Under the pieces are notes generated by a model, which was not told the origin of the DNA, searched no databases, and saw only the letters and a list, made by a program, of their open reading frames with translations. A stretch of DNA of 57,947 nucleotides. Origin: a virus. Taxonomy: Duplodnaviria; Caudoviricetes. Below are positions 141 through 57,947 of the stretch, piece after piece (position 1 is the stretch's first letter; every line of letters starts with the position of its first letter). The stretch spans positions 1 to 57,947 of IMG/VR virus record IMGVR_UViG_3300038317_000024; one strand, given 5' to 3'. A program made the position numbers and the translations under genes.

Positions 141-143
141 GTA

Positions 144-1311: not shown

Positions 1312-1330
1312 GCGCATACCTCCTTTCACA

Positions 1331-43100: not shown

Positions 43101-43639
43101 TAGGAGAGTGGATCGGTGACAAATGGACGAGTTTCAAGAGCTGGCTTGGAGGATTAGGGCAAAAGGGATCCAAAGAGACAGGTCTAACAACCAGCGAGGG
43201 GAAAGGAAGCGTACTCGAACATGCATGGGGCGGAATCATGACAAAACCGCACATGGGAATCGTGGCCGAGGACGGAGCTGAAGGAATAATCCCATTAAAC
43301 CCAAGCAAAAGAACCCGAGGTATTGACCTATGGCAAAGAACTGGCGAGCTTCTCGGAGTGCAACCATATGAAGACGGAGGCGTTGTAGGAGAAGAACCAA
43401 ACCGAATACCAAAGGGAGTGCCAACAGGTGGAGGCAACAACATAACAATCAAGGTGGAGGTAAAAGCAGAGCCTAAATTCACAATTGAGGGCGATGGAGA
43501 TACCACCGACGAAAACAGAGTGCTGGCAGTTTTGAAGGGCTACATTCGAGAAATGACAGACGACATCGGAGACGAACTCGCAGAGAGACTGGCGCGAATA
43601 TTCGCAAACATGCCAGTGAAGGGAGGAGCTGAAGCGTAA
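40136..43639 (+). CDS. Tape measure protein
   Basis: FEQTQIAFETML..FANKTPF..ALGQMQAKG; Trp-rich repeats; C-terminal HAWGG..VAEDGAEGIIPL. Confidence 0.9.
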   Translation: MAAETFRIEIPIHVEDNTDPGVSQATRKINGFDKANQKTQERLNQMNRTKYQVVLDAMDRASGIIGKVSSGARSIAGKTFSFTMKVLDLATAPLRGLWNLATSVQGAILGATGAFAGIYKPMEIAGDFEQTQIAFETMLKSADKANKFMQDASTFANKTPFEFPELINSSKLLLAFGFEADKVLDLMTIIGDTSSGLGAGSEGIDRITRALGQMQAKGRAQAEELLQLQEMGVPANQILQEELGLTGEQVANIGKEGIAASKVIDALLRGMEKRYGGMMENQSKTAKGMISTLQDTLSNSLLRPWGQGLWEGIKPGLEKLTTWIDENQDTIAEWGEAWKKAGANISKWVMTKVEDLQGSIRRMTNSQEWKDAQTFGAKMKVAWDQIIAQPFNEWWNSTGKAWLSEKAGKIGEGIGTALSAGLLTLLGVDVSGAMEDGTSIGASFADGFSKGFDGKKVGEAILNAIKGVFNDAGTLLPGGEEASSTSWLSTGAIALALSKLGIFKLIGKGGKGLMSLFGKGSQSGAPAGAGTPSAYSTDTMYVTAQVVNVYGRSIQNPSGGSPGGGVPGGSIPPMLPTTGMPPMLPPGGGPLSLPPTTPPLALPGAVGAAGTAGKVINTVQLSNGTYAASGGALGTGLATTGVALGSGATTAGGAAAAGASGILGGILGILGIGAGAVDIYQGTKKTGKEAKDEYWQGGTKLGMVGTGAAAGAAIGSVVPVIGTGVGALVGAGIGGAAALFGGDKAGKTLSDATDKGGGLSKFWDNTKKWAGDTWDSVKTGASNAGTWISDKWSGFSDWFDTSVWTPAKDIGISAINIAAGAWSEGSDWIGDKWSDFSGWFDETVWTPVSNAAQTAGQWVSDRWGEARTWVGDRWSDFSGWFEESIWTPVKTGAQAAGSWVGERWSEAKTFVSETWANVSGWFSETVWEPVKGAAATAGTWLDEKFTLAKGAVQEAWTGVSGWFEENVWGPIKTGASNAWEWVGEKLGGIGEWIGDKWTSFKSWLGGLGQKGSKETGLTTSEGKGSVLEHAWGGIMTKPHMGIVAEDGAEGIIPLNPSKRTRGIDLWQRTGELLGVQPYEDGGVVGEEPNRIPKGVPTGGGNNITIKVEVKAEPKFTIEGDGDTTDENRVLAVLKGYIREMTDDIGDELAERLARIFANMPVKGGAEA

Positions 43640-44295
43640 TGGATATATACTTCACAGAAATAGAAACAGGCGCAAGACTGGCACTTTCAATGCTCCCTGA
43701 AAAGACAAAGCATAAAGGCTCTGCAAGTTTTCAGTCATACGACATAATCAACATCGGGGAGGTTAAAATTCCGAAAGGAACAAACCTTTTGACGTTCTCT
43801 TGGAATGCAACACTCCCCGGAAGGAGCCGCAGGAACGCAAGCTATGTCAAGAGACAGCACTGGAGAAACCCGGACGAAATCATAAGCCTGTGGGAAAAGT
43901 GGAGAAAAGAAGGCACCAGGATCCGACTAATGATCACGGAAACGCCCATCAATTACGACGTGTACCTGGATGATTACCAAGCAGAGGCAACTGGAGGAAA
44001 CGGCGACTACGAATACAGCATTGCATTTTTAGAAGCCAAACCGGTGGAGGTTTACACAGTCAACGAGCTGAACATAAAACCAAGTGCAAAAACCAACACC
44101 AACAGCACAGCAAGCAGGCCTCCAGCAGCCACAGCAAAGACTTATACCGTAAAAAGTGGAGATAGCCTGTGGAAGATCGCGCAGAAATCCCTGGGAAAAG
44201 GTGGACGATACATGGAGATATTTAATCTCAACAAAGACAAGATAAAGAACGTAAACCTCATATATCCAGGGCAAGTGCTGACGCTGCCAAGTTAG
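43639..44295 (+). CDS. LysM-domain tail/baseplate protein (XkdP-like)
   Basis: YTVKSGDSLWKIA..NLIYPGQVLTLP. Confidence 0.88.
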   Translation: MDIYFTEIETGARLALSMLPEKTKHKGSASFQSYDIINIGEVKIPKGTNLLTFSWNATLPGRSRRNASYVKRQHWRNPDEIISLWEKWRKEGTRIRLMITETPINYDVYLDDYQAEATGGNGDYEYSIAFLEAKPVEVYTVNELNIKPSAKTNTNSTASRPPAATAKTYTVKSGDSLWKIAQKSLGKGGRYMEIFNLNKDKIKNVNLIYPGQVLTLPS

Positions 44296-44298
44296 GAG

Positions 44299-45549
44299 GT
44301 GGAAGCCACGATAGACATAAGAAAACTAAAATATAAATTAATTCTCGTGACAGCATCCGGAAAGCAGCTTGACGTTACACAGGCGGCCGAAAGTATCGGA
44401 TGGGAAGAAGGCGACGCAGAGCTGGCACAACGTATAGGATTTACACTACACAACACCAAATACGGAGGTAGCCAGCTTTCAAGCCTTGCGCAACCAGGAA
44501 GCATAGTGGCTATTATAGCAGACTGGGGTACCAGCAGCGAAGAAGTGGCCAGGGGAACCATTGAAGAGTGGGAACCAGGGCACGTAGGAAGCGGATCTAC
44601 AACTTTTGACGTACTGGCGTATGATGAACTTTTCAACCTTCAGCAGAGCCAGGACAACCGATACTACTCTGCAGGCACAGGGACAAAAGCAGCCATAACT
44701 GGAATATTTAACGACTGGGGAGTGCCGATAGAGAAATACGATGGCCCGGACGTAGCACACGCAAAGACACCGTTCAAGAATGAGTATTTGAGTAATATCC
44801 TCATTCAGCTTTTAGACGACGCAGCCAAAAAAGGCGGAGCGAAATGCATAATAAGAGCCAGCAAAGGGAAGGTCAGCGTAATACCAAAGGGCAGCAACAA
44901 GACGATTTACCACTTCGATGAAGACACTAATGCCACACTCACCAGGGACAAGATAAGCACCGTTGATCTGGTGACAAGGGTTAAGGTAGTAGGCAAAGAA
45001 GACAGCGAAGGAAGACAGCCTGTAGAAGCGGTAATCGACGGATTGACCCAGCACGGAATAAGACAAAGGATACAAAACCGGGCAGAGGACGACACACTGG
45101 CCAACGCAAAATCAGCAGCTCAAGAAATACTGGACGTGCAAGGAAAACCAACCAGAACAATTGTACTCGAAGCTCCTGACGTTCCGATGATCCGTAAAGG
45201 AGACAAGATCCACGCCAAGGCAGGGACGCTCAATGGATATTACATCACGAAATCGGTACGACACGACGCAGCCAGCCGCAGCATGACCATGGAGCTGGAA
45301 CCAGAGGAAGTAAGCGCACCGGCACAATCAGGAGCTGCAGCACCAGCGGCAGCAAGTACAACATTCAATAAAGGCGACAGCGTAATTCTTAACGGCGCTG
45401 TTTATTCAGACAGCTACGGAAACGGAAAAGGGAAGACATTCACGAACCGAAGCTGCAAAATAACCATCAAGGTAGACACAGCAAGGCCATGCCCATACCA
45501 CGTAGACGGTATAGGCTGGGTTAAGCCAAATACCATAACAAAAGCATAA
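44299..45549 (+). CDS. Baseplate hub protein (XkdQ-like)
   Basis: Position; AYDELF.L, VTRVKVVG, IRKGDKI..YYITKSVRH. Confidence 0.75.
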   Translation: MEATIDIRKLKYKLILVTASGKQLDVTQAAESIGWEEGDAELAQRIGFTLHNTKYGGSQLSSLAQPGSIVAIIADWGTSSEEVARGTIEEWEPGHVGSGSTTFDVLAYDELFNLQQSQDNRYYSAGTGTKAAITGIFNDWGVPIEKYDGPDVAHAKTPFKNEYLSNILIQLLDDAAKKGGAKCIIRASKGKVSVIPKGSNKTIYHFDEDTNATLTRDKISTVDLVTRVKVVGKEDSEGRQPVEAVIDGLTQHGIRQRIQNRAEDDTLANAKSAAQEILDVQGKPTRTIVLEAPDVPMIRKGDKIHAKAGTLNGYYITKSVRHDAASRSMTMELEPEEVSAPAQSGAAAPAAASTTFNKGDSVILNGAVYSDSYGNGKGKTFTNRSCKITIKVDTARPCPYHVDGIGWVKPNTITKA

Positions 45550-45561
45550 GGAGGCGATAGC

Positions 45562-46011
45562 ATGAATCCATCATCGGGAAATCCGGGGATAAATAAACTC
45601 GGCCAGGTACTGCAGCAACGCATGAAGGAGACAAACGCATCGCCTCTCGTGCTTGATTTTGGAGTGATCCAGCAGGACTACAGTCTAATGACCAACACAT
45701 ACCCGATACCGATACCAAAAGCAGACTACCTGGTATGCAGGGACGTCACACACAATCCAAGCGTATCATTGACGCAAACAAAACTCGGACAAGGGCAACA
45801 CCCGCACGGATCAAGCGGCAGCCATGGCGGCCACAGTAGCGGAAACGGAACCCACGACCACCCGGACACAGAAGGAGCCCACGTTCATGATGTGGTGCTT
45901 CCAGAAACAATGCGCTGGCTAAAGCCAGGAGACAGAGTTCTGGTAGCCTGGGTTCAAAACGATGCCGTAGTAATTGACGTCGTATTACCAGCGACAAGGA
46001 TAGGAGGATGA
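45562..46011 (+). CDS. Baseplate spike-like protein (XkdR-like) with His-rich insert
   Basis: LDFGVIQ..LKPGDRVLVAW..VVIDVV; internal His/Gly/Ser tract. Confidence 0.65.
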   Translation: MNPSSGNPGINKLGQVLQQRMKETNASPLVLDFGVIQQDYSLMTNTYPIPIPKADYLVCRDVTHNPSVSLTQTKLGQGQHPHGSSGSHGGHSSGNGTHDHPDTEGAHVHDVVLPETMRWLKPGDRVLVAWVQNDAVVIDVVLPATRIGG

Positions 46012-46015
46012 TTAT

Positions 46016-46465
46016 ATGGCAGATAAAAACCTGTTCCCTGTCTTTGACGTTCCAGAAATCATAACGCCAGCTCCGGCAGAGGAGCAGAAATACAAGCCCA
46101 GTGTTTACTTTGACTACGTTCTGGGAGATTTCAGGCGAGACGGAGCCAACAAAATGGTCGTAGCTGAAGGAAGAGAAGCATACCAGCAATGGTGCATAAA
46201 AACCGTGCTGACAGAACGACTCGACCGAATGTCATACAGCAGCGATATAGGAACCGAGCTCGACGATGCACTCAAACAGGCAGACAGACAAGCAGTAGAA
46301 TCAGCGATGGAAAGGACGATCACAGAAGCACTCATGGTAAATAAAAGAACCGAATACGTTCGGAGTTTTGAATTCACATGGGACAGCGACGGCCTGCATT
46401 GCGATTTCATAGTCAAAGGCAAGGAATGGGAAGAACAACATATCGGCGTAATTTTACAAACGTAA
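46016..46465 (+). CDS. DUF2634 / XkdS-like baseplate protein
   Basis: EAYQQWCIKTVLTER..YSSDIGTEL..ERTITEAL. Confidence 0.78.
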   Translation: MADKNLFPVFDVPEIITPAPAEEQKYKPSVYFDYVLGDFRRDGANKMVVAEGREAYQQWCIKTVLTERLDRMSYSSDIGTELDDALKQADRQAVESAMERTITEALMVNKRTEYVRSFEFTWDSDGLHCDFIVKGKEWEEQHIGVILQT

Positions 46466-46478
46466 GGAGGTGGAAAGA

Positions 46479-47612
46479 ATGTCGATAGAATTTAAGGCGC
46501 CGAGTTTTCTAAATGACCAGGACGCAGAGACGATCCACAAAAGGATGATGGAGGAACTACCTCCAGACATAGACGACACAGAGGGCGGCTTTCCTTGGGA
46601 TTTTACTAAACCAACAGCGCTCGAAAAGGCAGAGATGCTGGAGTTCCACCTAACAGAAACACTTAAAATTATGTTTCCGATGTGGGCGGAGGATCAGTGG
46701 CTCGACTTGCACGCAAAAGGCAGAGGCCTAACAAGAAAACCAGCCAACCCAGCATCAGGAACTCTCGCAATAACCGGCGTATCCGGAACGACAATACCTG
46801 CAGGTTTCAAATTTGCAGCACCGGCCATAGGAGATCAACCAGCAATCGAATACGAAACCAAAGAGAAATACACCATGGGCGAAAACGGAACGGTCGAAGT
46901 TCAAGTAACAGCGATAGAGGCAGGAACAAAAGGCAACGTACCAGCTGGATCCATAAACATTATGATGACGCCGATAAAAGGCATAACATCAATAACTAAT
47001 CCAGTGCCAATCACCGGCGGAGCTGAACAGGAAAGCAACGACGAGCTGCGCGGCCGAATTGACGAACTCGACGCGACAAGCGAGGCCAGCTTTGTAGGCA
47101 GCGACGGCGACTATAAACGATGGGCAGAGGAGGTACCCGGCGTAGGAACAGCGCTACCAATGCCAGAATGGGCAGGCCCAGGAACGGTGAAGATAGTAGT
47201 CATTGACGCCAACGGTCAACCGGCCAATGCAGCAATAATAACCGAAGTTTATAACAATATTATGAGCCCAGGCGATAGACTGCAGAGGAAGGCACCAGTA
47301 GGAGCCACAGTGACTATTGTAGCGCCAACAGCGAAGGACATAAATTATACCTTCCTGTTAGAAATCCAATCCGGAGAAGCGGAAGTAACCGTTCTGGAAC
47401 GTTTCAAAGCACAGCTTCAGACTTATTACATCGAAGCAAAGAAGGAAGGAGTGGTCCGATACACAAAGATAGGATCCATTTTGACAAGCACAAGCGGAGT
47501 AAAGGACTTCACCGGGCTCACAATAAACGAAGGCACCACAAACATCATTCTTGAAGAAGACGAATACCCGGTAACCGGAGTAATTGATCCAGCAGGAGGA
47601 GGTGGGGCTTAA
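46479..47612 (+). CDS. Baseplate J-like protein (XkdT-like)
   Basis: LDLHA..GLTRKPA, AGTKGNV, GGAEQESNDELR, DYKRWA, GPGTVKI. Confidence 0.9.
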   Translation: MSIEFKAPSFLNDQDAETIHKRMMEELPPDIDDTEGGFPWDFTKPTALEKAEMLEFHLTETLKIMFPMWAEDQWLDLHAKGRGLTRKPANPASGTLAITGVSGTTIPAGFKFAAPAIGDQPAIEYETKEKYTMGENGTVEVQVTAIEAGTKGNVPAGSINIMMTPIKGITSITNPVPITGGAEQESNDELRGRIDELDATSEASFVGSDGDYKRWAEEVPGVGTALPMPEWAGPGTVKIVVIDANGQPANAAIITEVYNNIMSPGDRLQRKAPVGATVTIVAPTAKDINYTFLLEIQSGEAEVTVLERFKAQLQTYYIEAKKEGVVRYTKIGSILTSTSGVKDFTGLTINEGTTNIILEEDEYPVTGVIDPAGGGGA

Positions 47613-48397
47613 TGATTGATTTAGAGAAGTTCCCGACCAGCCCTGCAGCCAAGAGAATGATGAAGACAGTCTCGCCGGTTTATGACAAGGCCTACGTAGG
47701 AAAGTGGATATTCCAGGTCATGGGGATGGAAGTAGATGAAGCATGGGCATTCTTTGAAGAGCTCCGGCTTCAGGCATTCCCAGAGACTGCAACATGGGGC
47801 ATTGTTTACTGGGAGCAGCGGTACCACATACCGCCAGATGATAGCCTAACGACCGAAGAGCGAAGGCAGCGTGTGATCGTAAAGAGAGGCAAGCGGTCAC
47901 CAATGAACCCAGCACGAATAGAGCAATTCACAAGAGACGTAACCGGAAGGCAAACCGTAGTAACGGAGCGCAACGAGGAGTACGTCTTTTTAGTTTCTAT
48001 TTTGCCAGGAGAATCAGAGGTTGACTACAGCGAGCTTATAAAAACCATACGCAGCGTGAAGCCTTCCCACCTTTCATTCAGTGTGCTGTTTCAGACCGAC
48101 GTAAGACTAACAATTCAGGCTACGAGCCAAGAGAAGTATTCATTCGGTTATACGCTTACCGGAACGGTGCCGGATACCAACACGGTCGGAGCGTTAGGAG
48201 AGAACAGTTTCATACTCGACGCAGACATGGAAGGTCACCCGTTCGATTACGAGGTAGCAGGAACCGGAGACACCGGGGAATATCCACAAACAAACACCAT
48301 AGGAAGCATAGAACAGGAAGCATTGATCCCCAGCATTTCAGCAACAGGATCAACTTTTAATTACCAGCTCTGCGGAGAAGCGGAGCGCGAGCTTTAG
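47612..48397 (+). CDS. DUF2313 / XkdU-like baseplate protein
   Basis: PETATWGIVYWEQRYHI..EERRQRV..KPSHL. Confidence 0.8.
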   Translation: MIDLEKFPTSPAAKRMMKTVSPVYDKAYVGKWIFQVMGMEVDEAWAFFEELRLQAFPETATWGIVYWEQRYHIPPDDSLTTEERRQRVIVKRGKRSPMNPARIEQFTRDVTGRQTVVTERNEEYVFLVSILPGESEVDYSELIKTIRSVKPSHLSFSVLFQTDVRLTIQATSQEKYSFGYTLTGTVPDTNTVGALGENSFILDADMEGHPFDYEVAGTGDTGEYPQTNTIGSIEQEALIPSISATGSTFNYQLCGEAEREL

Positions 48398-48406
48398 AAA
48401 GGAGGA

Positions 48407-48724
48407 ATGGCCATGGGATTATTAACAACTGAAGCGATTGAAGGTTACAAGGACTATACCAAAAAAACAATCGCATACGCCCAATACAAAGCAGGGGGCA
48501 CATATTACAAGGCAAAGATTTCTTCCGTATCCGTTCTACCGGACGGCAGACTGGCGGTTGATTTTCTAATCGACCACACGGTACCAGGCGATATAAACGT
48601 CACAGAGGTGCAGCTTTATAACACCAACAACAAGCTTTGGCTATCGAAACCAGAAAGCATACTCCGAAAGGACGTGCAAGAAGGAATTTTGTATAGGTTC
48701 ACATTCACAATTCAAGAAGGGTAG
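48407..48724 (+). CDS. Hypothetical baseplate/fibre-attachment protein
   Basis: Strong RBS; ITEVQLY-like motif; position. Confidence 0.6.
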   Translation: MAMGLLTTEAIEGYKDYTKKTIAYAQYKAGGTYYKAKISSVSVLPDGRLAVDFLIDHTVPGDINVTEVQLYNTNNKLWLSKPESILRKDVQEGILYRFTFTIQEG

Positions 48725-48732
48725 GTGAGAAA

Positions 48733-49254
48733 ATGTACAATCAAACAGAATGGAAAGACCACGTAACCCAATACCCGAGCAGGAGACGACTAACAACCAA
48801 TCCTGACGGATCAACGGAAGTGGTAAAGGAGCAAGGTCAAGTTATTCAACAAGGGACGCCACAGAGCGCGACCAACTTCAATAACCAAGAAAATGGCATT
48901 CAAGACGCGCATGCGGCCGCCGCAGTAATAATCCAGTATTTTATACAGTTTGAACGCTGGGTAAGGGAAAAGATAGCCGATTACGCGGCAGAATTCCTAA
49001 ATGAAATCAAGACCGTAACCCTTGTAAACGCAGGGGGCGTCGCTTTCTTTGCCGCTAATGCGCAGACGGTAAGCCTTGCCACAATAAGGAAAACACTAAA
49101 CTACGACGTAAGCTGGGAAATTACATCGGCAAACGGAAACGTCGGAGACATTACAGTAACAGACAAGCAGTTAAATGGTTTCAAGATTGCCTATGACGGA
49201 AGCGCAACCAGCGTAACACTAAAAATAAGAATTAGAGGAGGTATGCTTGTATGA
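48733..49254 (+). CDS. Tail fibre-associated protein
   Basis: WKDHV..GTPQSATNFNNQENGI; DKQLNGFKIAYDGSA. Confidence 0.65.
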   Translation: MYNQTEWKDHVTQYPSRRRLTTNPDGSTEVVKEQGQVIQQGTPQSATNFNNQENGIQDAHAAAAVIIQYFIQFERWVREKIADYAAEFLNEIKTVTLVNAGGVAFFAANAQTVSLATIRKTLNYDVSWEITSANGNVGDITVTDKQLNGFKIAYDGSATSVTLKIRIRGGMLV

Positions 49255-49604
49255 TGCAGATCATCGAGAAGAACGAAGGCAATAAAATAGCCTTTGAAGA
49301 AAATGGGACAATGGTATTCCTTGGAGATAACGAGCTAATGCTCAACGCATCCAAGTATCAGAGAGACTGGCCAGTGCATATTGACGTATGCAGCAACCGC
49401 GACAATCAACTTGTTGTTGGAACAGGAGAAGGCCTTTATTACGTAGCGCAGCTTGACATTCCCGCAGCAAAATACACCGAACCGCCAGAAGTTGAACCAG
49501 AGTACGGAACGGATGGGGAATCACCAAAGTTGATACCAATCGATATGAGCGAGGTAATATTGACACTTTGGAGCATTGAAAATCCTACGCCAGTAGAAAT
49601 TTAA
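49251..49604 (+). CDS. Hypothetical tail-associated protein
   Basis: RBS; directly upstream of the DGR target. Confidence 0.65.
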   Translation: MMQIIEKNEGNKIAFEENGTMVFLGDNELMLNASKYQRDWPVHIDVCSNRDNQLVVGTGEGLYYVAQLDIPAAKYTEPPEVEPEYGTDGESPKLIPIDMSEVILTLWSIENPTPVEI

Positions 49605-49619
49605 AGGAGGACACAAGAA

Positions 49620-50690
49620 ATGGCTAATTTTGATTTAGTAAACCTTGCCTTAAAGGCAACATGCCCAGCAAATGAAATAATACTGGACGACAAGGGGCTC
49701 CCAAGCGTAATGGTTCGAGTTCCGAAATTAAAAAATTCAGACTTGTACGCAGGAGGAGACTCCAGTACCCACCCTGCATGGTTAGTAAATGGAGTTGAAG
49801 TTCCGGAAATTTATATTTCCAAGTATCTCAATGTCGTTCGCGGAGGAAGAGCGTACAGTTTACCAGGAGAGGATCCGGCGTCAGGAATGACATGGGATAC
49901 AGCCAGATCATACTGCGAAGCCAAGGGTCGGGGATGGCATATGATGACGAAACCAGAATACGCAGCAATTGCACTATGGTGCAAGAAGAACGGCTTCATG
50001 CCATGGGGAAACAACAGCTACGGTAAAGACAGCCGTGAAACTTTAGTAAAAGCCATACCGGCCACATTTGACGGAGAAGGAAAAACACTTCACACATTGA
50101 CTGGAACCGGCCCTGTTGAATGGAGCCACGACAAAACAGTTAATGGAATTTTTGACTTAAACGGAAACGTGAGCGAATGGACAGGTGGAGTTAGAACAGT
50201 ATTCGGAGAAATACAGGTACAGCCGAACAACAACGGAGCGGATAGTTCTAATTTACAGACAGCAGTAGCAACAACATGGAGGGCGATAGACGCCACAACA
50301 GGCTTGTTTGTAGTTCCAAACGGAACAGGAACAACACCAAATTCCGTGAAGGTAGACTCTGTGGCCAGCAAACCACAGTTCAGATCCGCAATAGTAACCC
50401 AAAGCAGTGATTTCAGTGGAATAATCTCTGAAATCACATGCGATGCTTCGGTTTCAGCAGCAGCCCAAGCAGTGCTTAAGGCATACGGATTATTACCAGA
50501 CGACGCAGGATTTGATTATCAAGGAGACAGACTTTATTTCAATAACGTAGCAGACGAGCGCTTGTTCCACTCCGGCGGCCACTATATCAGCACCACGATC
50601 GCGGGCGTGTTCTACAGCGGCGGCTACTACTACTCGCGCACGGTCGCCAACGGCAGCATCGGCTTTCGCTCCGCTTATGTAAAACTGTAA
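49620..50690 (+). CDS. DGR target protein, probable receptor-binding protein with C-terminal C-lectin/FGE-like fold
   Basis: ISKY..GWHMMT..EY..GIFDLNGNVSEW..GG..IGFRSA; 3' end is the VR. Confidence 0.9.
   Translation: MANFDLVNLALKATCPANEIILDDKGLPSVMVRVPKLKNSDLYAGGDSSTHPAWLVNGVEVPEIYISKYLNVVRGGRAYSLPGEDPASGMTWDTARSYCEAKGRGWHMMTKPEYAAIALWCKKNGFMPWGNNSYGKDSRETLVKAIPATFDGEGKTLHTLTGTGPVEWSHDKTVNGIFDLNGNVSEWTGGVRTVFGEIQVQPNNNGADSSNLQTAVATTWRAIDATTGLFVVPNGTGTTPNSVKVDSVASKPQFRSAIVTQSSDFSGIISEITCDASVSAAAQAVLKAYGLLPDDAGFDYQGDRLYFNNVADERLFHSGGHYISTTIAGVFYSGGYYYSRTVANGSIGFRSAYVKL
50557..50675 (+). repeat. DGR variable repeat (VR)
   Basis: 119 bp, ungapped match to 51176-51294 with 14 mismatches. Confidence 0.95.
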
Positions 50691-50772
50691 TCTGGAGCTT
50701 GTAATCTGGCAAAGACCGCGATAGCGGGCGACAAATAACGCACAATGCAAACCACAGAAGGAGGAATTGATA

Positions 50773-51156
50773 ATGGAAGAGATAGAGGGCTATGGATTAC
50801 CGGAGGATCCAGATGATGATGAAGAGGAGCTCCTAATCGTTAAAAAGATTACGGATATGATGGAATACGCATATCTGGCACTGGCTCAATTTCCTCGTTC
50901 AGAAAAGCAAGCAATGGTGGCAGACATTAAGCGCTGCATTGATCGCCTGCTTGAACGGGCAATTGAAGCCAACAAGAAATACTTCAAAAAGAACACGTTA
51001 CAGGAAATGGACGTGGAACTTGCAAAATTAAAGAAATACATCCGCCTGGCGTACCGATTAAAGTTTTTACCGTACAAGAAATACAAGAACTGGACGGCAA
51101 TGACGAAGGAAATCGGGCGCATGCTGGGCGGCTGGATAAAGAGCACCAAAAGATAA
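50773..51156 (+). CDS. avd: DGR accessory variability determinant
   Basis: FPRSEK..LQEMDVELAKLK.YIRLA..EIGRMLGGWIK; between VR and TR. Confidence 0.92.
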   Translation: MEEIEGYGLPEDPDDDEEELLIVKKITDMMEYAYLALAQFPRSEKQAMVADIKRCIDRLLERAIEANKKYFKKNTLQEMDVELAKLKKYIRLAYRLKFLPYKKYKNWTAMTKEIGRMLGGWIKSTKR

Positions 51157-51175
51157 TTTTAGGGAATGCGGATAC

Positions 51176-51294
51176 AGCGCTTGTTCAACTCCGGCGGCAA
51201 CTATAACAACACCACGAACGCGGGCGTGTTCTACAGCAACGGCAACAACAACTCACGCACGAACGCCAACGGCAACATCGGCTTTCGCTCCGCT
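51176..51294 (+). repeat. DGR template repeat (TR)
   Basis: 12 AAC triplets; every difference from VR lies at a TR adenine. Confidence 0.95.
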
Positions 51295-51507
51295 CAATCC
51301 CATACGTCAGATGCCGGTACGCCCAAGGGATACCGGACAGTACAGGGAATAAGGATCCGCTTCCCTTACTTCCAGAACAAGGAGGTTAAAAAGAAAAACA
51401 GCAACAATTATAGATACAGGAGGCTGTAACTATGCGGGTGGAAGTAGTTTCATCCGGCCAGCGGTAGGGAGTCCGAGGCTCGAATTGTTGCGAATTTTTA
51501 TTATATT

Positions 51508-52638
51508 ATGGCGATTAGAAAAGTTTTTATGGAAATTACATCATTTCACAGTTTGTTGGTAGCAGAGCAGGAGGTAGCGAAAGGTAAGCGTGAAAAGAAA
51601 GAGACACTCGCATTTGAAGAGAACCTGGAGGACAGACTTCATGGAATCAGCCAGACGTTACGCTCCGGCAAAATACCAAAGGTTTATTATAAGAGTTTTC
51701 TTGTTTACGTACCGAAGGTAAGGAAAGTAATTTATATCGACTTCCAGAGCAAAGTCATTCAGCGAGCCATTTATGATGCAATTAACCCCAGGGTTTCAAA
51801 AGCATTCATAACAGACACATACTCATGCATAAAAGGACGCGGCCAAGTGGCTGCGTTCGATACTTTAAATAAATGGATAAAAGGAACAAGAACAGCGGGA
51901 GGAGAGTGGTATTATTACAAATTCGACGTAGCAAAATTCTTTTACCGGATAGATCATGAAATACTCATGGCCATTTGCGAAAAGAAAATAGACGACCCAA
52001 GGGCAGTCGATCTGATTAGGTATTATGTTTGCAGCACATCAAAGCCGTTCGGTTTGCCACTGGACGCAGACCACCTGACAATTGCAGAAGCAGAAATGCT
52101 GTGGGATTTAGGAATTCCAATAGGCGGAGGCTTAAGCCACATGCTGGGGAATATGTACATGGATCCACTGGATCAATACGCAAAGCGAGAGCTGGGCATT
52201 AAGCGATACATCCGGTACATGGACGATATAATCATCGTTGACAATGACAAGGAGCGCCTTCACGAGTACGGAAGAAAACTAACTGAATTCTTGGAGGAGC
52301 GACTAAAATTAAAATTCAACAGCAAAACAGCCCTACGGCCAGTTAAGTGCGGATGCGAATTTGTCGGTATTTTGGTTTACGACGACCACGCAATATTGAG
52401 GAAAAGTACATCGTTAAGGATGAAGAGACACATGCGCGAGGTAGCCGAGAACTACGCAGAAGGCAAGATTTCATTCGCAGAGGCTAACGCCACAGTACAG
52501 AGCTACAAGGCGATACTTGACAGGGTAGATTGTAAGAACTTCCGAGAGAAGCTATTTAAAGAATTCACATTAACACGTAATCCAAAAAGGACAGCAGAAG
52601 GGGAGGAACAACAGGATGGACGCAATGCAGATAATTGA
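51508..52638 (+). CDS. DGR reverse transcriptase
   Basis: PKVR, YSCIKGRG, KFDVAKFFYRIDH, GIPIGGGLSH, RYMDD, EFVG. Confidence 0.95.
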   Translation: MAIRKVFMEITSFHSLLVAEQEVAKGKREKKETLAFEENLEDRLHGISQTLRSGKIPKVYYKSFLVYVPKVRKVIYIDFQSKVIQRAIYDAINPRVSKAFITDTYSCIKGRGQVAAFDTLNKWIKGTRTAGGEWYYYKFDVAKFFYRIDHEILMAICEKKIDDPRAVDLIRYYVCSTSKPFGLPLDADHLTIAEAEMLWDLGIPIGGGLSHMLGNMYMDPLDQYAKRELGIKRYIRYMDDIIIVDNDKERLHEYGRKLTEFLEERLKLKFNSKTALRPVKCGCEFVGILVYDDHAILRKSTSLRMKRHMREVAENYAEGKISFAEANATVQSYKAILDRVDCKNFREKLFKEFTLTRNPKRTAEGEEQQDGRNADN

Positions 52639-52768
52639 CGCTCAGGCGGAAATTATACAAAAACAAAATGACATCATAGCTGCGATCGCTTCCCGACTTT
52701 TACAACATGAAGCGATCACACAAGAAGAGCTTCGCGAAATGGAGGTGAAGAATATCGATGCAAATTGA
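52616..52768 (+). CDS. Small coiled-coil protein (50 aa)
   Basis: GGGGAGG RBS; MDAMQIIDAQAEIIQKQNDII.. Confidence 0.5.
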   Translation: MDAMQIIDAQAEIIQKQNDIIAAIASRLLQHEAITQEELREMEVKNIDAN

Positions 52769-53075
52769 TGCGACAGCAATGCTGGTTTTTATGGGCGTAC
52801 CGAGCGCGTTCACAGGCCTATGCTTTTGGGCAATCCAGAAGAGCTTAACAAAGCGCGACAACAAAAGAGATGAGAGGGAGAAGGACAGAGAAAAAAATGA
52901 GCTCCTACTTATACGCAGTGTAGGAGCAGCAATCGCGCTGGGAGAGGCTACAGCACACGCGATCAGAGACGGGAAATGCAATGGAGAAATGAGTGCAGCA
53001 CTTGAATACGCCCAAAAGGTGAAGCATGAACAAAAGGATTTCATGACAGAGCAGGGAGTCAAGAATTTATATTAG
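52758..53075 (+). CDS. Single-TM lysis-module protein (holin-associated)
   Basis: N-terminal TM, charged middle, GKCNGEMSAAL. Confidence 0.65.
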   Translation: MQIDATAMLVFMGVPSAFTGLCFWAIQKSLTKRDNKRDEREKDREKNELLLIRSVGAAIALGEATAHAIRDGKCNGEMSAALEYAQKVKHEQKDFMTEQGVKNLY

Positions 53076-53086
53076 GAGGCGAATCT

Positions 53087-53410
53087 ATGACAGCAAAGAA
53101 AAGCCAAAAGAGAAAACAAAAGGCTCCTAAAAAGAAGAAGAGGATCGAGTTCTCAAAGTTAATATTTGGAGGTGTATCAGTAGCGACCATAGCAGTGGTC
53201 GTTTTTTCATGCCGAATGATATACACCACAGGAGACCTTTCACCGCTCGCATACCTTATTCCGTCGGTATTTGCAGAGCTGGCCACAGCAACCGGCTTTT
53301 ATTACAGAAAAGCCCAGAAAGAGAATGAGTTGAAGATACCTCACTACCTGGCCAATCAGAACACGACCGGTAGCGATGAAGGAGCAACGATCAATGAAAA
53401 TATTCAATGA
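53087..53410 (+). CDS. Two-TM holin-like protein
   Basis: Basic N-terminus, EFSKLI + TM, TM + GFYYRKAQKEN. Confidence 0.65.
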   Translation: MTAKKSQKRKQKAPKKKKRIEFSKLIFGGVSVATIAVVVFSCRMIYTTGDLSPLAYLIPSVFAELATATGFYYRKAQKENELKIPHYLANQNTTGSDEGATINENIQ

Positions 53411-53426
53411 AAAGGAGGAAAGAGAC

Positions 53427-53522
53427 ATGGACGACAAGATCAAAATCACCGAAGAAAAGGATTTAAACAAAGAAGCACTCGACGAATTGTCGAATGGGAA
53501 AGGAGACGACGAAAATGAGTAA
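53427..53522 (+). CDS. 31-aa acidic peptide overlapping the endolysin start
   Basis: AAAGGAGG RBS; MDDKIKITEEKDLNKEALDELSNGKGDDENE*. Confidence 0.4.
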   Translation: MDDKIKITEEKDLNKEALDELSNGKGDDENE

Positions 53523-54516
53523 TAGCCCTTTAGTTGACTACACCAAAATATCGCCCAACAGGACGAGTCCGAGAAAACAAGCAATTGACACAATAACAAT
53601 CCATTGTGTCGTAGGCCAGTGCTCAGTAGAAACCCTCGGAAATGTTTTTGCACCAGCAACGCGCCAGGCAAGCTCCAACTACGGAATCGGATACGACGGC
53701 AGGATCGGAATGTACTGCGAGGAAAAAGACCGCTCCTGGTGCACTTCGTCCAGCGCAAACGATAACCGAGCAATTACTATCGAAGTGGCCAGCGATACCA
53801 CACACCCATATGCAGTAACAGGCAAAGCACTCGCAGCATTGATTGAGCTTTGCGCAGACATCTGTAAGAGGAACAATATCAAGCAGCTCCTATGGAAGGG
53901 AGACAAGAATCTTATCGGACAGGTGGATAAGCAGAACATGACTGTTCACCGCTGGTTTGCAAGCAAATCATGCCCGGGAGACTACTTATACAACAAACAC
54001 CCATACATCGCGGCAGAAGTAAACAAAAGACTTGGAGCAGGCACAGCTCCGTCCACCGGATCCGGCACACTTTACTACGTGCAGACCGGAGCGTATTCAA
54101 ACAAAGCGAATGCAGATGCGCAATACAACAGGGTAAAAACGGCAGGCTTTGAAGCAATAATGAAAAAAGCGGGCAATCTTTACAGGGTGCAGGTAGGCGC
54201 ATATTCCCAAAAGGCAAATGCGGATGCAATGGCAACCAGGCTGAAAGCTGCAGGGTTTGAAACTTACGTAACGACAACCGGAGGGACACAGGTAGCTGCA
54301 GGATCCACGCCAGCACCGTCACCAACAAAGACAATTAAGGTAGGAAGCAAAGTCAAGGTTAGATCCGGAGCAAGGACATACACCGGAGGAAGCCTATCAG
54401 ACTTTGTTTATAACACTGTTTATGACGTGCAGCAGATAGACGGAAAAAGAGTAGTAATAGGCCTTAAAGGTCAAGTCACAGCAGCCATAAAGCTGGAAGA
54501 CTTGATACTTCAATAA
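53515..54516 (+). CDS. Endolysin: N-acetylmuramoyl-L-alanine amidase with two SPOR-like repeats
   Basis: ITIHCVVG, ASSNYGIG, ITIEVAS, HRWFASKSCPG; YYVQTGAYS and YRVQVGAYS repeats. Confidence 0.92.
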   Translation: MSNSPLVDYTKISPNRTSPRKQAIDTITIHCVVGQCSVETLGNVFAPATRQASSNYGIGYDGRIGMYCEEKDRSWCTSSSANDNRAITIEVASDTTHPYAVTGKALAALIELCADICKRNNIKQLLWKGDKNLIGQVDKQNMTVHRWFASKSCPGDYLYNKHPYIAAEVNKRLGAGTAPSTGSGTLYYVQTGAYSNKANADAQYNRVKTAGFEAIMKKAGNLYRVQVGAYSQKANADAMATRLKAAGFETYVTTTGGTQVAAGSTPAPSPTKTIKVGSKVKVRSGARTYTGGSLSDFVYNTVYDVQQIDGKRVVIGLKGQVTAAIKLEDLILQ

Positions 54517-54531
54517 GAGGAGGAAAAACAA

Positions 54532-54972
54532 ATGAGCGAAAACATGACCGAAATTCTAACAACCATCATCCAGGTGGTAATCATACCGGCGATCCCGGTT
54601 TTAGTCACATACCTGGTGAAATTCCTGAAGGCGAAGGCTGATCAGACGACAACCAAGATAGACAACGATTTGATCAAAGCCTATCTGCAGGAAGCAACCG
54701 ACGCAGTCCTTCAGGCTGTGGTATACACAACCCAGACATACGTCGATGCGCTGAAAAAGCAGGGCAAGTTTGATGCAACAGCGCAAAAGGTAGCATTTAC
54801 CCAAGCAAAAGACGTAGCGCTAAAATTATTAACAGAAGAAGCCAAGCAGATGATCACAGACTTATACGGAGACATTACAATATGGCTCGACACCAAGATA
54901 GAGCAGACGGTGAACGAGCAAAAGGCATTCACACTCACCGGGCTGCAGCCCATTCAGGAAATAGAAGCCTAA
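54532..54972 (+). CDS. Holin-like protein (N-terminal TM)
   Basis: TM followed by AVVYTTQTYVDALKK..WLDTKIEQTV. Confidence 0.7.
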   Translation: MSENMTEILTTIIQVVIIPAIPVLVTYLVKFLKAKADQTTTKIDNDLIKAYLQEATDAVLQAVVYTTQTYVDALKKQGKFDATAQKVAFTQAKDVALKLLTEEAKQMITDLYGDITIWLDTKIEQTVNEQKAFTLTGLQPIQEIEA

Positions 54973-54994
54973 AAAAACAACCGATATGAATCGG

Positions 54995-55029
54995 AGCCCC
55001 AGAGAACGCAAACTCTGGGGCTTTTTTTG
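54995..55029 (+). terminator. Late-operon intrinsic terminator
   Basis: AGCCCCAGAG / CTCTGGGGCT perfect 10-bp stem followed by T-run. Confidence 0.85.
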
Positions 55030-55043
55030 TTGCCCAAAAATAA

Positions 55044-55114
55044 ATCTCGGAATTCGAGAAATTGTCGTTGACTATTAACCGACGTCGGTTTATAGTGTTC
55101 TCAAGAATTGAGAA
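55044..55114 (+). promoter_or_regulatory. SigmaA promoter flanked by two repressor-type operators, with a 26-bp palindrome
   Basis: ATCTCGgaattCGAGAA 55044-55060; TTGACT(55068)-17 bp-TATAGT(55091); TTCTCAagaatTGAGAA 55098-55114. Confidence 0.85.
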
Positions 55115-55127
55115 GGAGGAACAAACA

Positions 55128-55409
55128 ATGACAAAGCAAGAATTTAAGGATCTCACAAAGAGAGATTTCACAGACGCAGAATACACAGCGATCGAAACGG
55201 TTTACACCTTCCACCCTTCCATAAGCGAAACCGAAGGAAAGAAGCAGATCGCCAACCTTTACGACACGTACGGAATCAGGATCATAGCCGACATGCTACC
55301 GACAGCAAACAAAGCAAGAGATTATGAAGAAAATATCACCAAGAAGAGACACGAGCTGGAAGAGCTTCAGGAGGAGTTCAAAACATTTAAGCACCCATTA
55401 AGTGCATAA
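55128..55409 (+). CDS. Hypothetical protein, first gene of terminal operon
   Basis: AGGAGG RBS before ATG 55128 (MTKQEF..IETVYTFHP). Confidence 0.75.
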   Translation: MTKQEFKDLTKRDFTDAEYTAIETVYTFHPSISETEGKKQIANLYDTYGIRIIADMLPTANKARDYEENITKKRHELEELQEEFKTFKHPLSA

Positions 55410-55421
55410 GGAGGAAAAACG

Positions 55422-55616
55422 ATGTTAAACCCAAAGAACCTGGCCAATGGTCAAGAGCAACATGAAACATTTAAGAGCAGCATAGCAAGGAAGAAAGCGG
55501 TACAGTACGATTACAGGCACACCGACGGAGAATTATTCTCCTGCGTAAAGCCAACACTGGAAGCCTGTAGGCAGGCAAAAGATAACTGGATTAGCAAGAA
55601 GGAGGAGAATAGATGA
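55422..55616 (+). CDS. DUF3873-like small protein
   Basis: VQYDYRHTDGELFSCVKPTLEACR. Confidence 0.7.
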   Translation: MLNPKNLANGQEQHETFKSSIARKKAVQYDYRHTDGELFSCVKPTLEACRQAKDNWISKKEENR

Positions 55617-55969
55617 TCAGATACTACTTAACACAAAGACCACCAATGCCCGGAGCTTTTCCGGGCAAGCCAGTGAACATGGAGACATACGACGAAAGAA
55701 AGTACGTTAGCGAAATAGGAAGGCGCGCATGGGGATGGGTAGAATACCAATGGCCATTGACAGAGAAGGAAGTAGACGACTACGAGCTAACCAGACCGAT
55801 AAAGTTCAACATAATAGACCTGAAGACGAACGAAATACTGGCCACAGTGAGCGATAAAGGAACAGCCGACAGAATGTTTGTACACATGCAGAAGAAGTAC
55901 CCAAAAAAGAAACTATGGATAGGAATTTCAAACGGAAGGGAGAGAAGAACTGATGATATTCAGGGTTAA
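55613..55969 (+). CDS. DarA_C-like (defence-against-restriction A C-terminal) domain protein
   Basis: YYLTQRPPMPGAFP..GRRAWGWVEY..PLTEKEVDDYEL. Confidence 0.65.
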   Translation: MIRYYLTQRPPMPGAFPGKPVNMETYDERKYVSEIGRRAWGWVEYQWPLTEKEVDDYELTRPIKFNIIDLKTNEILATVSDKGTADRMFVHMQKKYPKKKLWIGISNGRERRTDDIQG

Positions 55970-56156
55970 TAACGGCAGACACATACAAGTCAGCCAAACA
56001 AAACCAGATGGGCCGGTGAAGGTGGAGACATACGCACCAGCAGGCGACAACATGACCAAAGAGCAAAGCATACAGATAAGCCCCGGAGACTTTGTGATGA
56101 TGATCAACTGGTATAGGTACCAGAAAGAAAACGGAAACGGAAATTTGAACTTTTAG
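55953..56156 (+). CDS. Hypothetical protein
   Basis: ISPGDFVMMINWYRYQK; overlaps upstream gene. Confidence 0.6.
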   Translation: MIFRVNNGRHIQVSQTKPDGPVKVETYAPAGDNMTKEQSIQISPGDFVMMINWYRYQKENGNGNLNF

Positions 56157-56164
56157 GAGGAGCT

Positions 56165-56425
56165 ATGAGCAAACCATATTACGAGATAGACCAAGTGACC
56201 CAAAACACAATCATGGAGCTTAAAAAGAAGTGCACAGAGCTCGACCTGGGGAATGTCAGCTTTCAATACTACCCAACCAGATCCAGAACGGAGGAGACGG
56301 AATTCTACCTGACAGAATACACAGAGCACTGGGAACTTGTAGTAAAGCAGAGATGGGCGAAGACGGCCGACATTTACAGGATAGAAGAGAGCAGCCTAAA
56401 CTACCAATATTCAGAAAAGGATTAA
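56165..56425 (+). CDS. Hypothetical protein
   Basis: AGGAGG RBS; 86 aa. Confidence 0.65.
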   Translation: MSKPYYEIDQVTQNTIMELKKKCTELDLGNVSFQYYPTRSRTEETEFYLTEYTEHWELVVKQRWAKTADIYRIEESSLNYQYSEKD

Positions 56426-56438
56426 GGAGGAAACAGCC

Positions 56439-56591
56439 ATGACAAACGCAGCGGCAATCGGGTACATGATCAGAGCAGCCAAACAGACCAAACTCGATAA
56501 CAAGATCATAAAAATACTTGAGGTTTTGATGCTTGAAGAGATGGACTTTCACACCGAGGAAGAAGCAGAGAGAACATATCAAAGTTATTGA
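56439..56591 (+). CDS. Hypothetical protein (50 aa)
   Basis: AAGGAGG RBS; MTNAAAIGYMIRAA..EEEAERTYQSY*. Confidence 0.6.
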   Translation: MTNAAAIGYMIRAAKQTKLDNKIIKILEVLMLEEMDFHTEEEAERTYQSY

Positions 56592-56603
56592 GGAGGAGCA
56601 GAC

Positions 56604-57524
56604 ATGAAGGATTTAAGGGATAGGATCGCCGGAGCATTATACGGCGTAGCAATAGGGGACGCGCTGGGCGCTCCCCTGGAGTTTATGAGCAAAGACGAAA
56701 TAGCCAGGAAGCATGGCAGGGTAACAGAGATGATCGGAGGAGGCTGGCTAAACGTTAAGCCAGGAGAAGTGACAGACGACACCCAAATGACACTGGCAGT
56801 AGCGGAAGGAATCGTAGCGAACCCAGACGACCCAATCCAGGAGATAGGAGCCCGCTTCATTGAATGGGTAAAAAGTGGCCCGAAGGACATCGGAGGAACC
56901 TGCAACATGAGCATACGCGGAGCAGCCACAAGGAGCCACCAGGAAGCCCCAAACGAAGAGAAATGGATTGAGGCAAGCAAATATACCTGTGAAACAAACA
57001 GAGGGCGCAGCGGCGGAAATGGAGCCCTAATGCGTACGGTTTACCCTGGTCTTTATTACGAAGGACAGCTGGAGGCAGTAGCGGCGGCTGCAAGCATAGC
57101 GCAAATGACTCACTGGGACGAGAAATCAACCGAGGCTTGTATTTTATACACAGGAATGATACAGTTAATAACTGGATCAAATAACGACAGCGGAGCATGG
57201 CTGCACGTTAACAGAACGCTCAAAGGAAGCGAGTACAAACTGGAGCCAAGAAAAGACGTAGAGCCTACCGGATACGTAATAGATAGTTTCAAATGCGCCC
57301 TTCACAGCTTGGCAACAACGGAGACATTCGAAGAAGCCATCATAGAGGCGGCCAACCTTGGAGGAGACGCAGACACAATAGCAGCAATCACCGGCGGACT
57401 GGCCGGAGCAATATACGGATACAAGGAAATACCAGAGAGATGGATCCAGTCACTCGATCCAAAGACCAGGGCGCAGCTTGACAGACTCATAGACGCAGCG
57501 GTAACGAATAGGGAGGACGAGTAG
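56604..57524 (+). CDS. ADP-ribosylglycohydrolase (DraG/ARH family)
   Basis: GDALG, TDDTQM, GNGALMR, TH, GGDADTIAAITGGLAGA all present. Confidence 0.92.
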   Translation: MKDLRDRIAGALYGVAIGDALGAPLEFMSKDEIARKHGRVTEMIGGGWLNVKPGEVTDDTQMTLAVAEGIVANPDDPIQEIGARFIEWVKSGPKDIGGTCNMSIRGAATRSHQEAPNEEKWIEASKYTCETNRGRSGGNGALMRTVYPGLYYEGQLEAVAAAASIAQMTHWDEKSTEACILYTGMIQLITGSNNDSGAWLHVNRTLKGSEYKLEPRKDVEPTGYVIDSFKCALHSLATTETFEEAIIEAANLGGDADTIAAITGGLAGAIYGYKEIPERWIQSLDPKTRAQLDRLIDAAVTNREDE

Positions 57525-57525
57525 C

Positions 57526-57831
57526 ATGGCAGGACACGGAAGACCACTAAAGGGAAAGACCAAGCGAGCTCCGATCACAGTTCACGCAGCCGTCGGAATG
57601 ATTGAAACGATAGATGAGTACGTAAAGGAAAGAAACCAGCAACAGGAAACGGCATATTCACGCTCGGACTTTTATAATGAGGCAGCGGTACTCTTCCTGA
57701 AACACATAGAACGCTTCCCAGAAGAGGAAAAGGACGAAGAAGAAATGAACCGTACCAAAAGCGTACCGAAAAAAATCAGAGAGAGAAATAACGGAGATAA
57801 TACGAATAATACAAATAATAAAAACCAATAA
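57526..57831 (+). CDS. Ribbon-helix-helix-like DNA-binding protein
   Basis: GRPLKG..PITVH (strand)..IETIDEYV..SRSDFYNEA (helices). Confidence 0.55.
   Translation: MAGHGRPLKGKTKRAPITVHAAVGMIETIDEYVKERNQQQETAYSRSDFYNEAAVLFLKHIERFPEEEKDEEEMNRTKSVPKKIRERNNGDNTNNTNNKNQ
57748..57768 (+). repeat. Probable integrase arm-type sites near attR
   Basis: AACCGTACCA + AAAGCGTACCG, matching 144-165. Confidence 0.7.
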
Positions 57832-57865
57832 AAATGAGCCAACGTAACACAACAAACTTTTAGAT

Positions 57866-57881
57866 TATCGAGTGGGAGTAA
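57866..57881 (+). repeat. attR core (TATCGAGTGGGAGTAA)
   Basis: Displaced guaA end ATC GAG TGG GAG TAA. Confidence 0.9.
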
Positions 57882-57888
57882 ATAAAAT

Positions 57889-57940
57889 AACGCCGGAGAC
57901 CCACATGATTGCTGGGCTTCCGGCGTTTTGTTTTACTTTT
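57889..57940 (+). terminator. Original host guaA terminator
   Basis: AACGCCGGA / TCCGGCGTT stem with T-rich tail. Confidence 0.7.
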
Positions 57941-57947
57941 TGAGTAC

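Follow-up and report, generated by a model that had tools for sequence, protein, structure and literature searches.

A dual-operator promoter heads a likely anti-defense-type gene cassette in a temperate Clostridia phage

We analyzed a 57,947-base stretch of DNA that makes up the entire IMG/VR virus record IMGVR_UViG_3300038317_000024 (hereafter, the window), which comes from a temperate phage of gut or fermenter Clostridia, and focused on an operon of eight open reading frames (ORFs) near its right end and on the promoter that heads it. An earlier annotation of this DNA (the original prediction) had placed the operon under the control of the phage repressor. We consider it reasonably likely that the locus, which lies between the lysis genes and attP, is an early, self-limiting cassette of anti-defense type with a dual-operator promoter: one set of sites is shared with the phage's immunity switch, and a separate palindrome may serve a ribbon-helix-helix (RHH) protein encoded by the last gene of the operon.

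The promoter is of the sigma-70 type, TTGACT-17-TATAGT (55068-55096, plus strand; −35 element at 55068-55073 and −10 element at 55091-55096), and stands, as described earlier, downstream of the late terminator. This 12-pair intrinsic terminator (54993-55024, plus strand) lies directly 3′ of the holin gene and closes the late/lysis operon. The promoter matches the consensus at 10 of 12 positions and is the best promoter-like site within 52500-57947, an interval in which such sites as a class are not enriched (nine found, 6.3 expected); its core is kept in 34 distinct relatives. The two sequences said to bracket it are present where they had been reported. With transcription assumed to start 7 nt after the −10 element, the upstream sequence, ATCTCGGAATTCGAGAA (55044-55060), is centered at about −51, a position also used in four other loci (L090, L011, L091 and L094), and the downstream sequence, TTCTCAAGAATTGAGAA (55098-55114), is a perfect match to the operator motif centered at about +3.

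A search of the window with the operator pattern TTCTCRNNNNNYGAGAA, that is TTCTCR-N5-YGAGAA with at most one mismatch, returned six sites (2637, 2688, 2722, 2960, 55044 and 55098) where 0.53 were expected, and none of 100 shuffles reached six. Four of these sites fall in the cI/cro switch and the other two bracket the cassette promoter, 54 bp apart, in agreement with the proposal that both regions use the same operator type. The −35 element TTGACT is also common to the cassette promoter and the cro promoter (TTGACT-17-TAAAAT, 2683-2711), as had been noted. Site 2688 occupies the spacer of the cro promoter, and site 2637 overlaps a cI promoter-like site on the opposite strand. Allowing up to two mismatches gave 11 sites against 6.6 expected; one of the additional sites lies in the switch (2659), and the remaining four are scattered in a way that fits chance. 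An operator over the start site is a repressing position at sigma-70 promoters.

To see how these operators behave among relatives, we gathered all loci with this promoter core, which comprise 34 distinct promoter contexts. Group A, the phages whose switch uses TTCTCR sites, accounts for 21 of them and includes distant members whose RHH proteins are only 48-60% identical; the remaining 13 make up groups B and C and the single locus L108. Every group-A promoter (21/21) has at least one immunity-type operator at +3 or at −51/−52, whereas none of the 13 promoters outside group A has one even at two mismatches, and their loci likewise lack such sites. The operator is centered at about +3 in 17 of the 21 group-A promoters and at −51 or −52 in five, with both places occupied in the window and in L090. 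Half-sites are constant and the five-nucleotide center is variable (AGAAT, AAAAG, AATAA, GAAAT, AATAT and others). That the site moves between two positions while its center turns over argues for selection on the half-sites. All of group A retains the recognition-helix region of cI, NKSLSRYEN; in group C this region is different.

Scans of whole records gave the same picture. In the three other records that contain both regions, 18 of 20 operator sites lie inside the switch or the promoter region (7/7 in G014, a 76-kb record, 5/6 in G015 and 6/7 in G016), and in two records with just one of the two regions (G013 and G017) sites occur only there. About 1.0 Mb of unrelated genome loci yielded nine single matches and one cluster, and this cluster (in L106) is itself an immunity region, adjoining an RHH gene. 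In group B, the promoter is flanked by a different repeat, TTGTCTRT (four copies plus an inverted copy); a 16-mer version of it occurs twice at the promoter, is matched with one mismatch at a single site in the immunity region of G002, and has one other occurrence in each of G001 and G002. We considered this repeat as a group-B case of operator covariation and found the evidence too weak to call.

The placement of the operators bears on whether the operon is instead an ordinary lysogenic-conversion moron, expressed from the prophage for the benefit of the host, with the TTCTCR sites only trimming its level or serving Cro alone during lytic growth. The location between lysis genes and att is a classic moron site; groups C, E and F carry the cassette without an immunity-type operator, so repressor control is not essential; and Listeria prophage acr loci are reported to act in lysogens (bioRxiv 10.1101/787200). 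Against this stands the fact that 17 of the 21 group-A promoters have a perfect-consensus operator across the presumed transcription start, a placement that blocks transcription and does not tune it, as well as the same motif in the spacer of the cro promoter. We regard the moron account as quite improbable.

The original prediction had read the promoter through a single repressor. The fit between operators and immunity type sustains that part, but the reading missed a second element, a palindrome in the promoter spacer, and with it the layout of an RHH autorepressor. The element is a perfect 14-bp palindrome, AACCGACGTCGGTT (AACC-N6-GGTT, 55077-55090), that abuts the −10 element and is a candidate RHH operator. 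Its arms, AACC/GGTT and often TAAACC/GGTTTA, recur in all 34 promoter contexts with a varying center (5 nt long in group C), and they are kept although the −35 element, flanks, cargo and immunity type differ among these contexts. The palindrome does not occur in the cI/cro switch of the window. In the window as a whole, the extended pattern finds the 55077 site and two one-mismatch sites, with 0.18 matches expected. The latter two, of the form AACC-N6-GGTTTATA, lie within late genes at 27092-27109 and 44039-44056, and may be chance occurrences or extra sites for the same factor.

Two further observations touch on this promoter. A CRISPR array in L260 (313-1029), with at least 11 copies of a 33-nt repeat, contains a spacer (about 497-530) identical to a group-C cassette promoter including the palindrome; therefore, some host or element targets exactly this conserved promoter. 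Separately, a 24-nt stretch nearly identical to the group-C promoter core (palindrome plus TATAAT) lies inside the hydrolase coding region of L080 (1090-1120), where it may be a coincidence or an internal promoter.

The operon ends with ORF8 (57526-57831, plus strand), the candidate autorepressor. It encodes a 101-residue protein with an RHH region at about residues 15-62 and a disordered tail whose coding sequence lies in the att arm region. Pfam and NCBIfam assign ORF8 to no family, and a comparison of its profile with PDB sequences returned only a weak match to MazE6 (E 0.12). Its predicted model has predicted local distance difference test (pLDDT) scores above 90 for residues 21-60 and consists of an extended segment and two helices (25-39 and 46-60). 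An all-against-representatives structure search returned RHH proteins for nearly every one of its 40 best matches (Z 5.7-4.0), among them TraM (Z 5.7), AmrZ (5.5), PutA (5.3) and Arc (4.7), as well as SvtR, NikR and omega. The earlier description of this protein as RHH-like is thus borne out by a model that aligns almost only with such proteins.

Although a locus search with the single ORF8 sequence gave no match, an alignment-based search did find loci, and the homolog profile places the gene at the operon end in every group. It remains linked to the promoter in loci that lack int (L007, L011 and L012) and across immunity groups. We then scanned IMG/VR with the promoter pattern alone, which recovered 84 stretches (60 distinct sequences); as a test of prediction, four of five records from new groups proved to have an ORF8 homolog 4.2-4.8 kb downstream on the same strand. 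The palindrome and the terminal RHH gene together point to an autorepressor layout like those of Aca proteins and Arc. Because groups C, E and F have the palindrome only, the basal layer of control is probably self-repression by the RHH protein, with the immunity operators added in a particular lineage.

We next turned to the genes that this promoter drives. The eight ORFs occupy 55128-57831, with −17 to +13 nt between neighbors, and are as tightly packed as had been stated. All are on the plus strand. ORF1 (55128-55409, 93 residues) belongs to phrog_31564, which has no assigned function, and is the first gene in several relatives too. The three families named for the operon hold in hidden Markov model searches of Pfam: ORF2 (55422-55616, 64 residues) is a DUF3873 protein (4e-21; 75.6 bits, cut-off 27), ORF3 (55613-55969, 118 residues) has an N-terminal DarA_C domain (1e-17), which also heads proteins of 247-263 residues in L011, L012 and L094, and ORF7 is an ADP-ribosylglycohydrolase (9e-66). 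ORF4 (55953-56156, 67 residues) has homologs in L008 and L012, ORF5 (56165-56425, 86 residues) in L010, and ORF6 (56439-56591, 50 residues) in L008, L010 and L013. For ORF1, ORF4, ORF5 and ORF6, Pfam and NCBIfam gave no family, and PHROGs gave only phrog_31564 for ORF1. The proposal that four small ORFs are new counter-defense candidates is not supported in that form: they are exchangeable cargo without a detectable family. No antirepressor family was found among the eight ORFs in Pfam at E ≤ 0.1.

Across 36 distinct operons, we counted 77 crude ORF families between the promoter and the RHH gene. What stays constant is the promoter, the RHH gene and, in 31 of 36 operons, the hydrolase; the rest is mosaic, including ORFs 1-6 of the window. 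A Pfam domain at E ≤ 0.001 was found in five of 66 family representatives: Lar_restr_allev, a 590-residue C5 DNA methylase, DarA_C, DUF6908 and DUF6874, of which the first three are anti-restriction-type genes carried by sister operons. In L010, the hydrolase gene is separated from the RHH gene by a DUF4326 gene (6e-32), a family for which a role in processing ADP-ribose phosphates has been put forward (PMC9503650). These family-level hints give the cassette an anti-defense flavor.

Exchange has left visible marks. L006 contains a duplicate of the first 33 codons of the hydrolase gene (5001-5099; 85% identical) upstream of the intact gene, which looks like a scar of cassette recombination. DNA runs from fermentation metagenomes contain the stretch, and one of them (X4), from the same study as its possible source, has two contigs with other sequence just before 55413 and one contig that joins 55604 back to 55127; this suggests variants of the cassette cargo in the same habitat. 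Among the named relatives of the cassette family are Lachnospiraceae, Ruminococcus and Faecalibacterium.

ORF7 (56604-57524, 306 residues), the most frequent cargo, is a DraG/Tri1-like ADP-ribosylglycohydrolase that matches Pfam ADP_ribosyl_GH (PF03747) with 222.9 bits (cut-off 26.2) over all profile positions (1-287 of 287). Its best sequence matches among solved and curated proteins are DraG and Tri1 (PDB 2woc and 6dre; TIGR02662 and NF041672), and in the comparison with DraG (2woc; 9e-52) the TDDT and GGDADT stretches are aligned. It differs from both in scoring below the cut-offs of their equivalogs and in having neither a DraT nor a Tre1 partner in its neighborhood. In a scan of a genome collection, the best match was 58%, in a metagenome-assembled genome of Lachnospiraceae, and there was no close relative. 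DraG-like PF03747 enzymes act, as a rule, on arginine-linked protein substrates.

A phage-borne ADP-ribose eraser of another fold, AdfN, is proven counter-defense (PMC11825919). AdfN (of the NADAR type) is reported to act against DarTG1 and, like ORF7, is an orphan ADP-ribosylglycohydrolase without a partner transferase; unlike AdfN, ORF7 has the DraG-like fold of PF03747. Its kinship to DraG and Tri1 could also be read differently, with the hydrolase and RHH pair as a module for host takeover or metabolism that undoes a regulatory ADP-ribosylation (DraT/DraG type) in the host, and the small ORFs as unrelated passengers. That the closest solved and curated relatives are these two enzymes favors such a module, as does a survey that describes such viral hydrolases as rare and proposes macromolecular conjugates as their targets (PMC9503650). 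The neighbors in sister operons, however, are genes of anti-restriction type and the predicted ADP-ribose-processing DUF4326 (PMC9503650), and five of the 36 operons lack the hydrolase yet keep the frame. We consider a metabolic module unlikely.

Returning to the anti-defense reading, we note several observations that count against it. The loci are related, so the conservation counts given above are inflated and not independent. The fold matches of ORF8 are modest, with Z at most 5.7, and the top Foldseek matches, AmrZ and ParD2, have E values of at least 3.5. One record with the promoter pattern (G012) has no RHH gene. In 12 loci that we call group D (L224:501-871, L207, L214, L219, L221, L226, L227, L242, L250, L257, L258 and L263), a similar palindrome promoter adjoins a gene for a 74-residue helix-turn-helix (HTH) protein, sometimes in two outward-facing copies, and an RHH homolog was found in none of the five group-D whole records tested. 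Here the spacer contains TAAACC-N6-GGTTTA, and an additional TAAACC-A7-GTTTA element lies upstream. In group C, the outer arms TAAAC...GTTTA resemble palindromes of that group's cI/cro region, and the group-C palindrome could be a CI-type site. As to the cargo, 61 of the 66 family representatives have no Pfam domain at E ≤ 0.001, no cargo gene here or in relatives encodes a proven anti-defense protein, and ORF7 scores below the NCBIfam cut-offs for DraG (219 vs 337) and Tri1 (177 vs 490). Finally, public "RNA" runs contain only 0.06-0.09 of the words of the stretch and are probably DNA; a comparison of four runs (X15, X17, X20 and X4) with 40000-57947 gave contigs alone, with cover that extends over the late genes too, and is uninformative on transcription.

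The group-D loci raise the question of whether the spacer palindrome is bound by another factor, either an HTH protein like that of group D or a regulator of the host, with the RHH protein having another task, for example at other promoters or in the att/int region. Besides the group-D promoters with their HTH gene and no RHH gene, the overlap between the RHH gene and an att arm-type repeat and the near-matches to the palindrome in late genes at 27092 and 44039 speak for such an arrangement. It is less easily squared with the way the RHH gene accompanies the promoter in loci without int and across immunity groups, and an HTH homolog of the group-D type occurs neither in the window nor in any locus of groups A-C. 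Moreover, a pattern scan can catch unrelated operators that happen to fit, and in group D it may have caught the operator of another family; alternatively, the palindrome may not be specific to RHH proteins. We hold a different binder to be possible, though doubtful. Because of the group-D loci and the group-C switch palindromes, we put binding of the RHH protein to the spacer palindrome at only somewhat better than even.

From the motifs, their placement and conservation, and their co-occurrence with an immunity type and an RHH gene, we infer the following binders, timing and targets. The near-consensus sigma-70 promoter, for which an activator would not be needed, would drive exchangeable small genes, the DraG-like hydrolase and the RHH protein. 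On entry or induction, when repressor is absent, the promoter would fire at once. As the RHH protein accumulates, it would bind AACC-N6-GGTT beside the −10 element and close its own operon, as Aca proteins and P22 Arc do. In a group-A lysogen, CI at the +3 operator would hold the promoter off, and in the window CI at +3 would probably loop to the −51 site 54 bp away. Later in lytic growth, Cro would probably damp the promoter through the immunity-type operators. The cargo would most likely blunt restriction, through DarA_C in the window and through Lar and a methylase in sister operons, and attack based on ADP-ribosylation, through the hydrolase and, in L010, DUF4326.

A broader proposal, which we offer tentatively, is a two-key anti-defense island: a family of RHH-framed, exchanging cassettes in Clostridia phages, in one lineage of which the immunity operators were copied onto the promoter, and whose DraG-like hydrolase would represent a new class of counter-defense that erases protein (arginine) ADP-ribosylation by host immunity.

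The place of the cassette in the phage form of the genome differs from that on the map of the window. The window is a prophage integrated in the 3′ end of guaA: positions 1-87 encode the C terminus of GMP synthase (1-84 match Pfam GMP_synt_C at 6.7e-14), and the 12-mer TATCGAGTGGGA, which supplies the last codons of guaA, forms the attL core (72-83, plus strand) at the end of the host gene and recurs as the attR core (57866-57877, plus strand), followed by the original guaA end and a host terminator (57910-57925). Relatives recovered with the hydrolase and with cI as queries include unintegrated forms (L005, L009, L071, L074 and L076), in which a single stretch leads from endolysin and holin through the promoter, the cargo, the hydrolase and the RHH gene to att, int, two further genes, cI and cro; in L007, L011 and L012, cI and cro directly follow the RHH gene, with no integrase in between. 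In a contig from a further run (X15), the sequence at window position 57881 continues into sequence resembling window 90-118, a junction that, by its sequence, is the attP of an excised relative. The distance from promoter to switch in the phage form is roughly 5 kb (in L009, 4398 vs about 9057). The cro promoter had been described as 52 kb away, which is valid only on the integrated map because the unintegrated relatives place the operon about 5 kb from the switch; "remote", as applied to the operon, is an artefact of integration. Judging from these gene orders, the 52-kb separation is an effect of the integrated map, and in phage form the operon still has a separate promoter behind its own terminator.

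Between the left att core and the switch lie a tyrosine integrase gene (169-1347, minus strand; Pfam Phage_integrase, Phage_int_SAM_3 and Arm-DNA-bind_4), two genes without known function, and the gene for a cI-like repressor of 137 residues (2191-2604, minus strand) that has only a Pfam HTH_3 domain, with the peptidase domain absent. The immunity switch itself (2637-2738) comprises operators at 2637, 2659, 2688 and 2722, the cro promoter on the plus strand and a cI promoter-like site on the minus strand (2653-2625). A cro-like HTH gene (2759-2983, plus strand; 74 residues) is divergent from cI and has a further operator in its 3′ end (2960-2976). At the opposite end, the cassette is preceded by the genes for an endolysin (53494-54516) and a holin (54532-54972). 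The longest repeat common to both ends of the window, the 15-mer AAAAGCGTACCGAAA, lies beside int (143-157, plus strand) with a second copy at 57757-57771, and we infer that it is an integrase arm site. It flanks the att core on both sides, with one copy within the 3′ tail of the RHH gene, and the variable, disordered C-terminal tails of the RHH proteins are seemingly encoded by integrase arm DNA.

The cassette resembles several known systems. The closest in layout is the acr-aca operon with Aca14, an RHH-type Aca that represses its operon through an inverted repeat overlapping the −10 element, as supported by electrophoretic mobility shift and reporter assays (bioRxiv 10.64898/2026.07.27.740549). 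Both systems combine variable small cargo and a DNA-binding gene in last place with a strong promoter that has its inverted repeat at the −10 element, and both regulators have the RHH fold (by predicted model in ORF8). They differ in that no known anti-CRISPR (Acr) protein is present here and the promoter here adds phage immunity operators; the Aca14 repeat is described there as AT-rich, while the centers in groups A-C are G+C-rich. In P22 immI with its ant moron (PMC2629481), a second regulatory region likewise lies outside the main immunity region, among late genes, and is variable between relatives; the logic is also alike, in that an early burst is ended by an RHH autoregulator (Arc) and a separate repressor silences the region in the lysogen. 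Here, though, the lysogen repressor would be the main CI, where P22 has the dedicated Mnt; an antirepressor domain was not found in the eight ORFs, and the cargo is anti-defense-like.

A third parallel is the early-left operon of lambda, which is under the control of OL and CI and carries ral and gam, anti-restriction and anti-nuclease genes that are silent in the lysogen and transcribed among the first. The immunity repressor sits on the promoter of such genes in lambda and, as we propose, here. The lambda operon starts at the immunity region, whereas the promoter in the window stands apart, about 5 kb off on the other side of attP, and would use operator copies and its own autoregulator.

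RHH-framed exchangeable cassettes are already known from Aca14. What is new here is the copying of immunity operators onto a cassette promoter, the size of the cassette family and its spread in Clostridia phages, and the near-universal DraG-like cargo. In one narrow literature search, none of the listed titles or abstract openings described repressor operators at acr or anti-defense promoters, and a blastn search of GenBank phage records gave no match to 54900-57947.

Anti-defense genes are costly and must be made first. To our knowledge, silencing in the lysogen combined with firing at entry is known for very few systems of such genes. The design proposed here is a testable one: a constitutive promoter, an operator for the cassette's autorepressor and, in one lineage, operators for the immunity repressor. 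The conserved frame, made up of the promoter, the palindrome and the RHH gene, also lends itself to searches in practice, the promoter pattern alone having recovered new cassettes from IMG/VR, and the dozens of small genes without known function in these operons can be prioritized for anti-defense screens. The frequent DraG-like hydrolase, once joined by DUF4326, hints at ADP-ribosylation as a battleground in Clostridia.

In some relatives, an extra small transcription unit separates the lysis genes from the cassette promoter (L096:3572-3740, L099:3828-3973, L102:2120-2266 and L015:3340-3440); the window lacks this unit. It has a promoter of its own, a TTCTCR operator before that promoter in group A, a terminator in group B, and a conserved G-rich core, GAGGGGG..AAGGGGG; we found neither an Rfam family nor a clear conserved fold for it. 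The accessory operon of one distant relative contains a type II hammerhead ribozyme (L096:4590-4654, plus strand; 41.3 bits, gathering score 37). Elsewhere in the window, the minus strand has a perfect TTGACA-17-TATAAT promoter (5995-5967) with a 10-pair terminator (5954-5930) directly behind it, a unit that could produce a very short antisense transcript or could be a two-way terminator beside a stray promoter.

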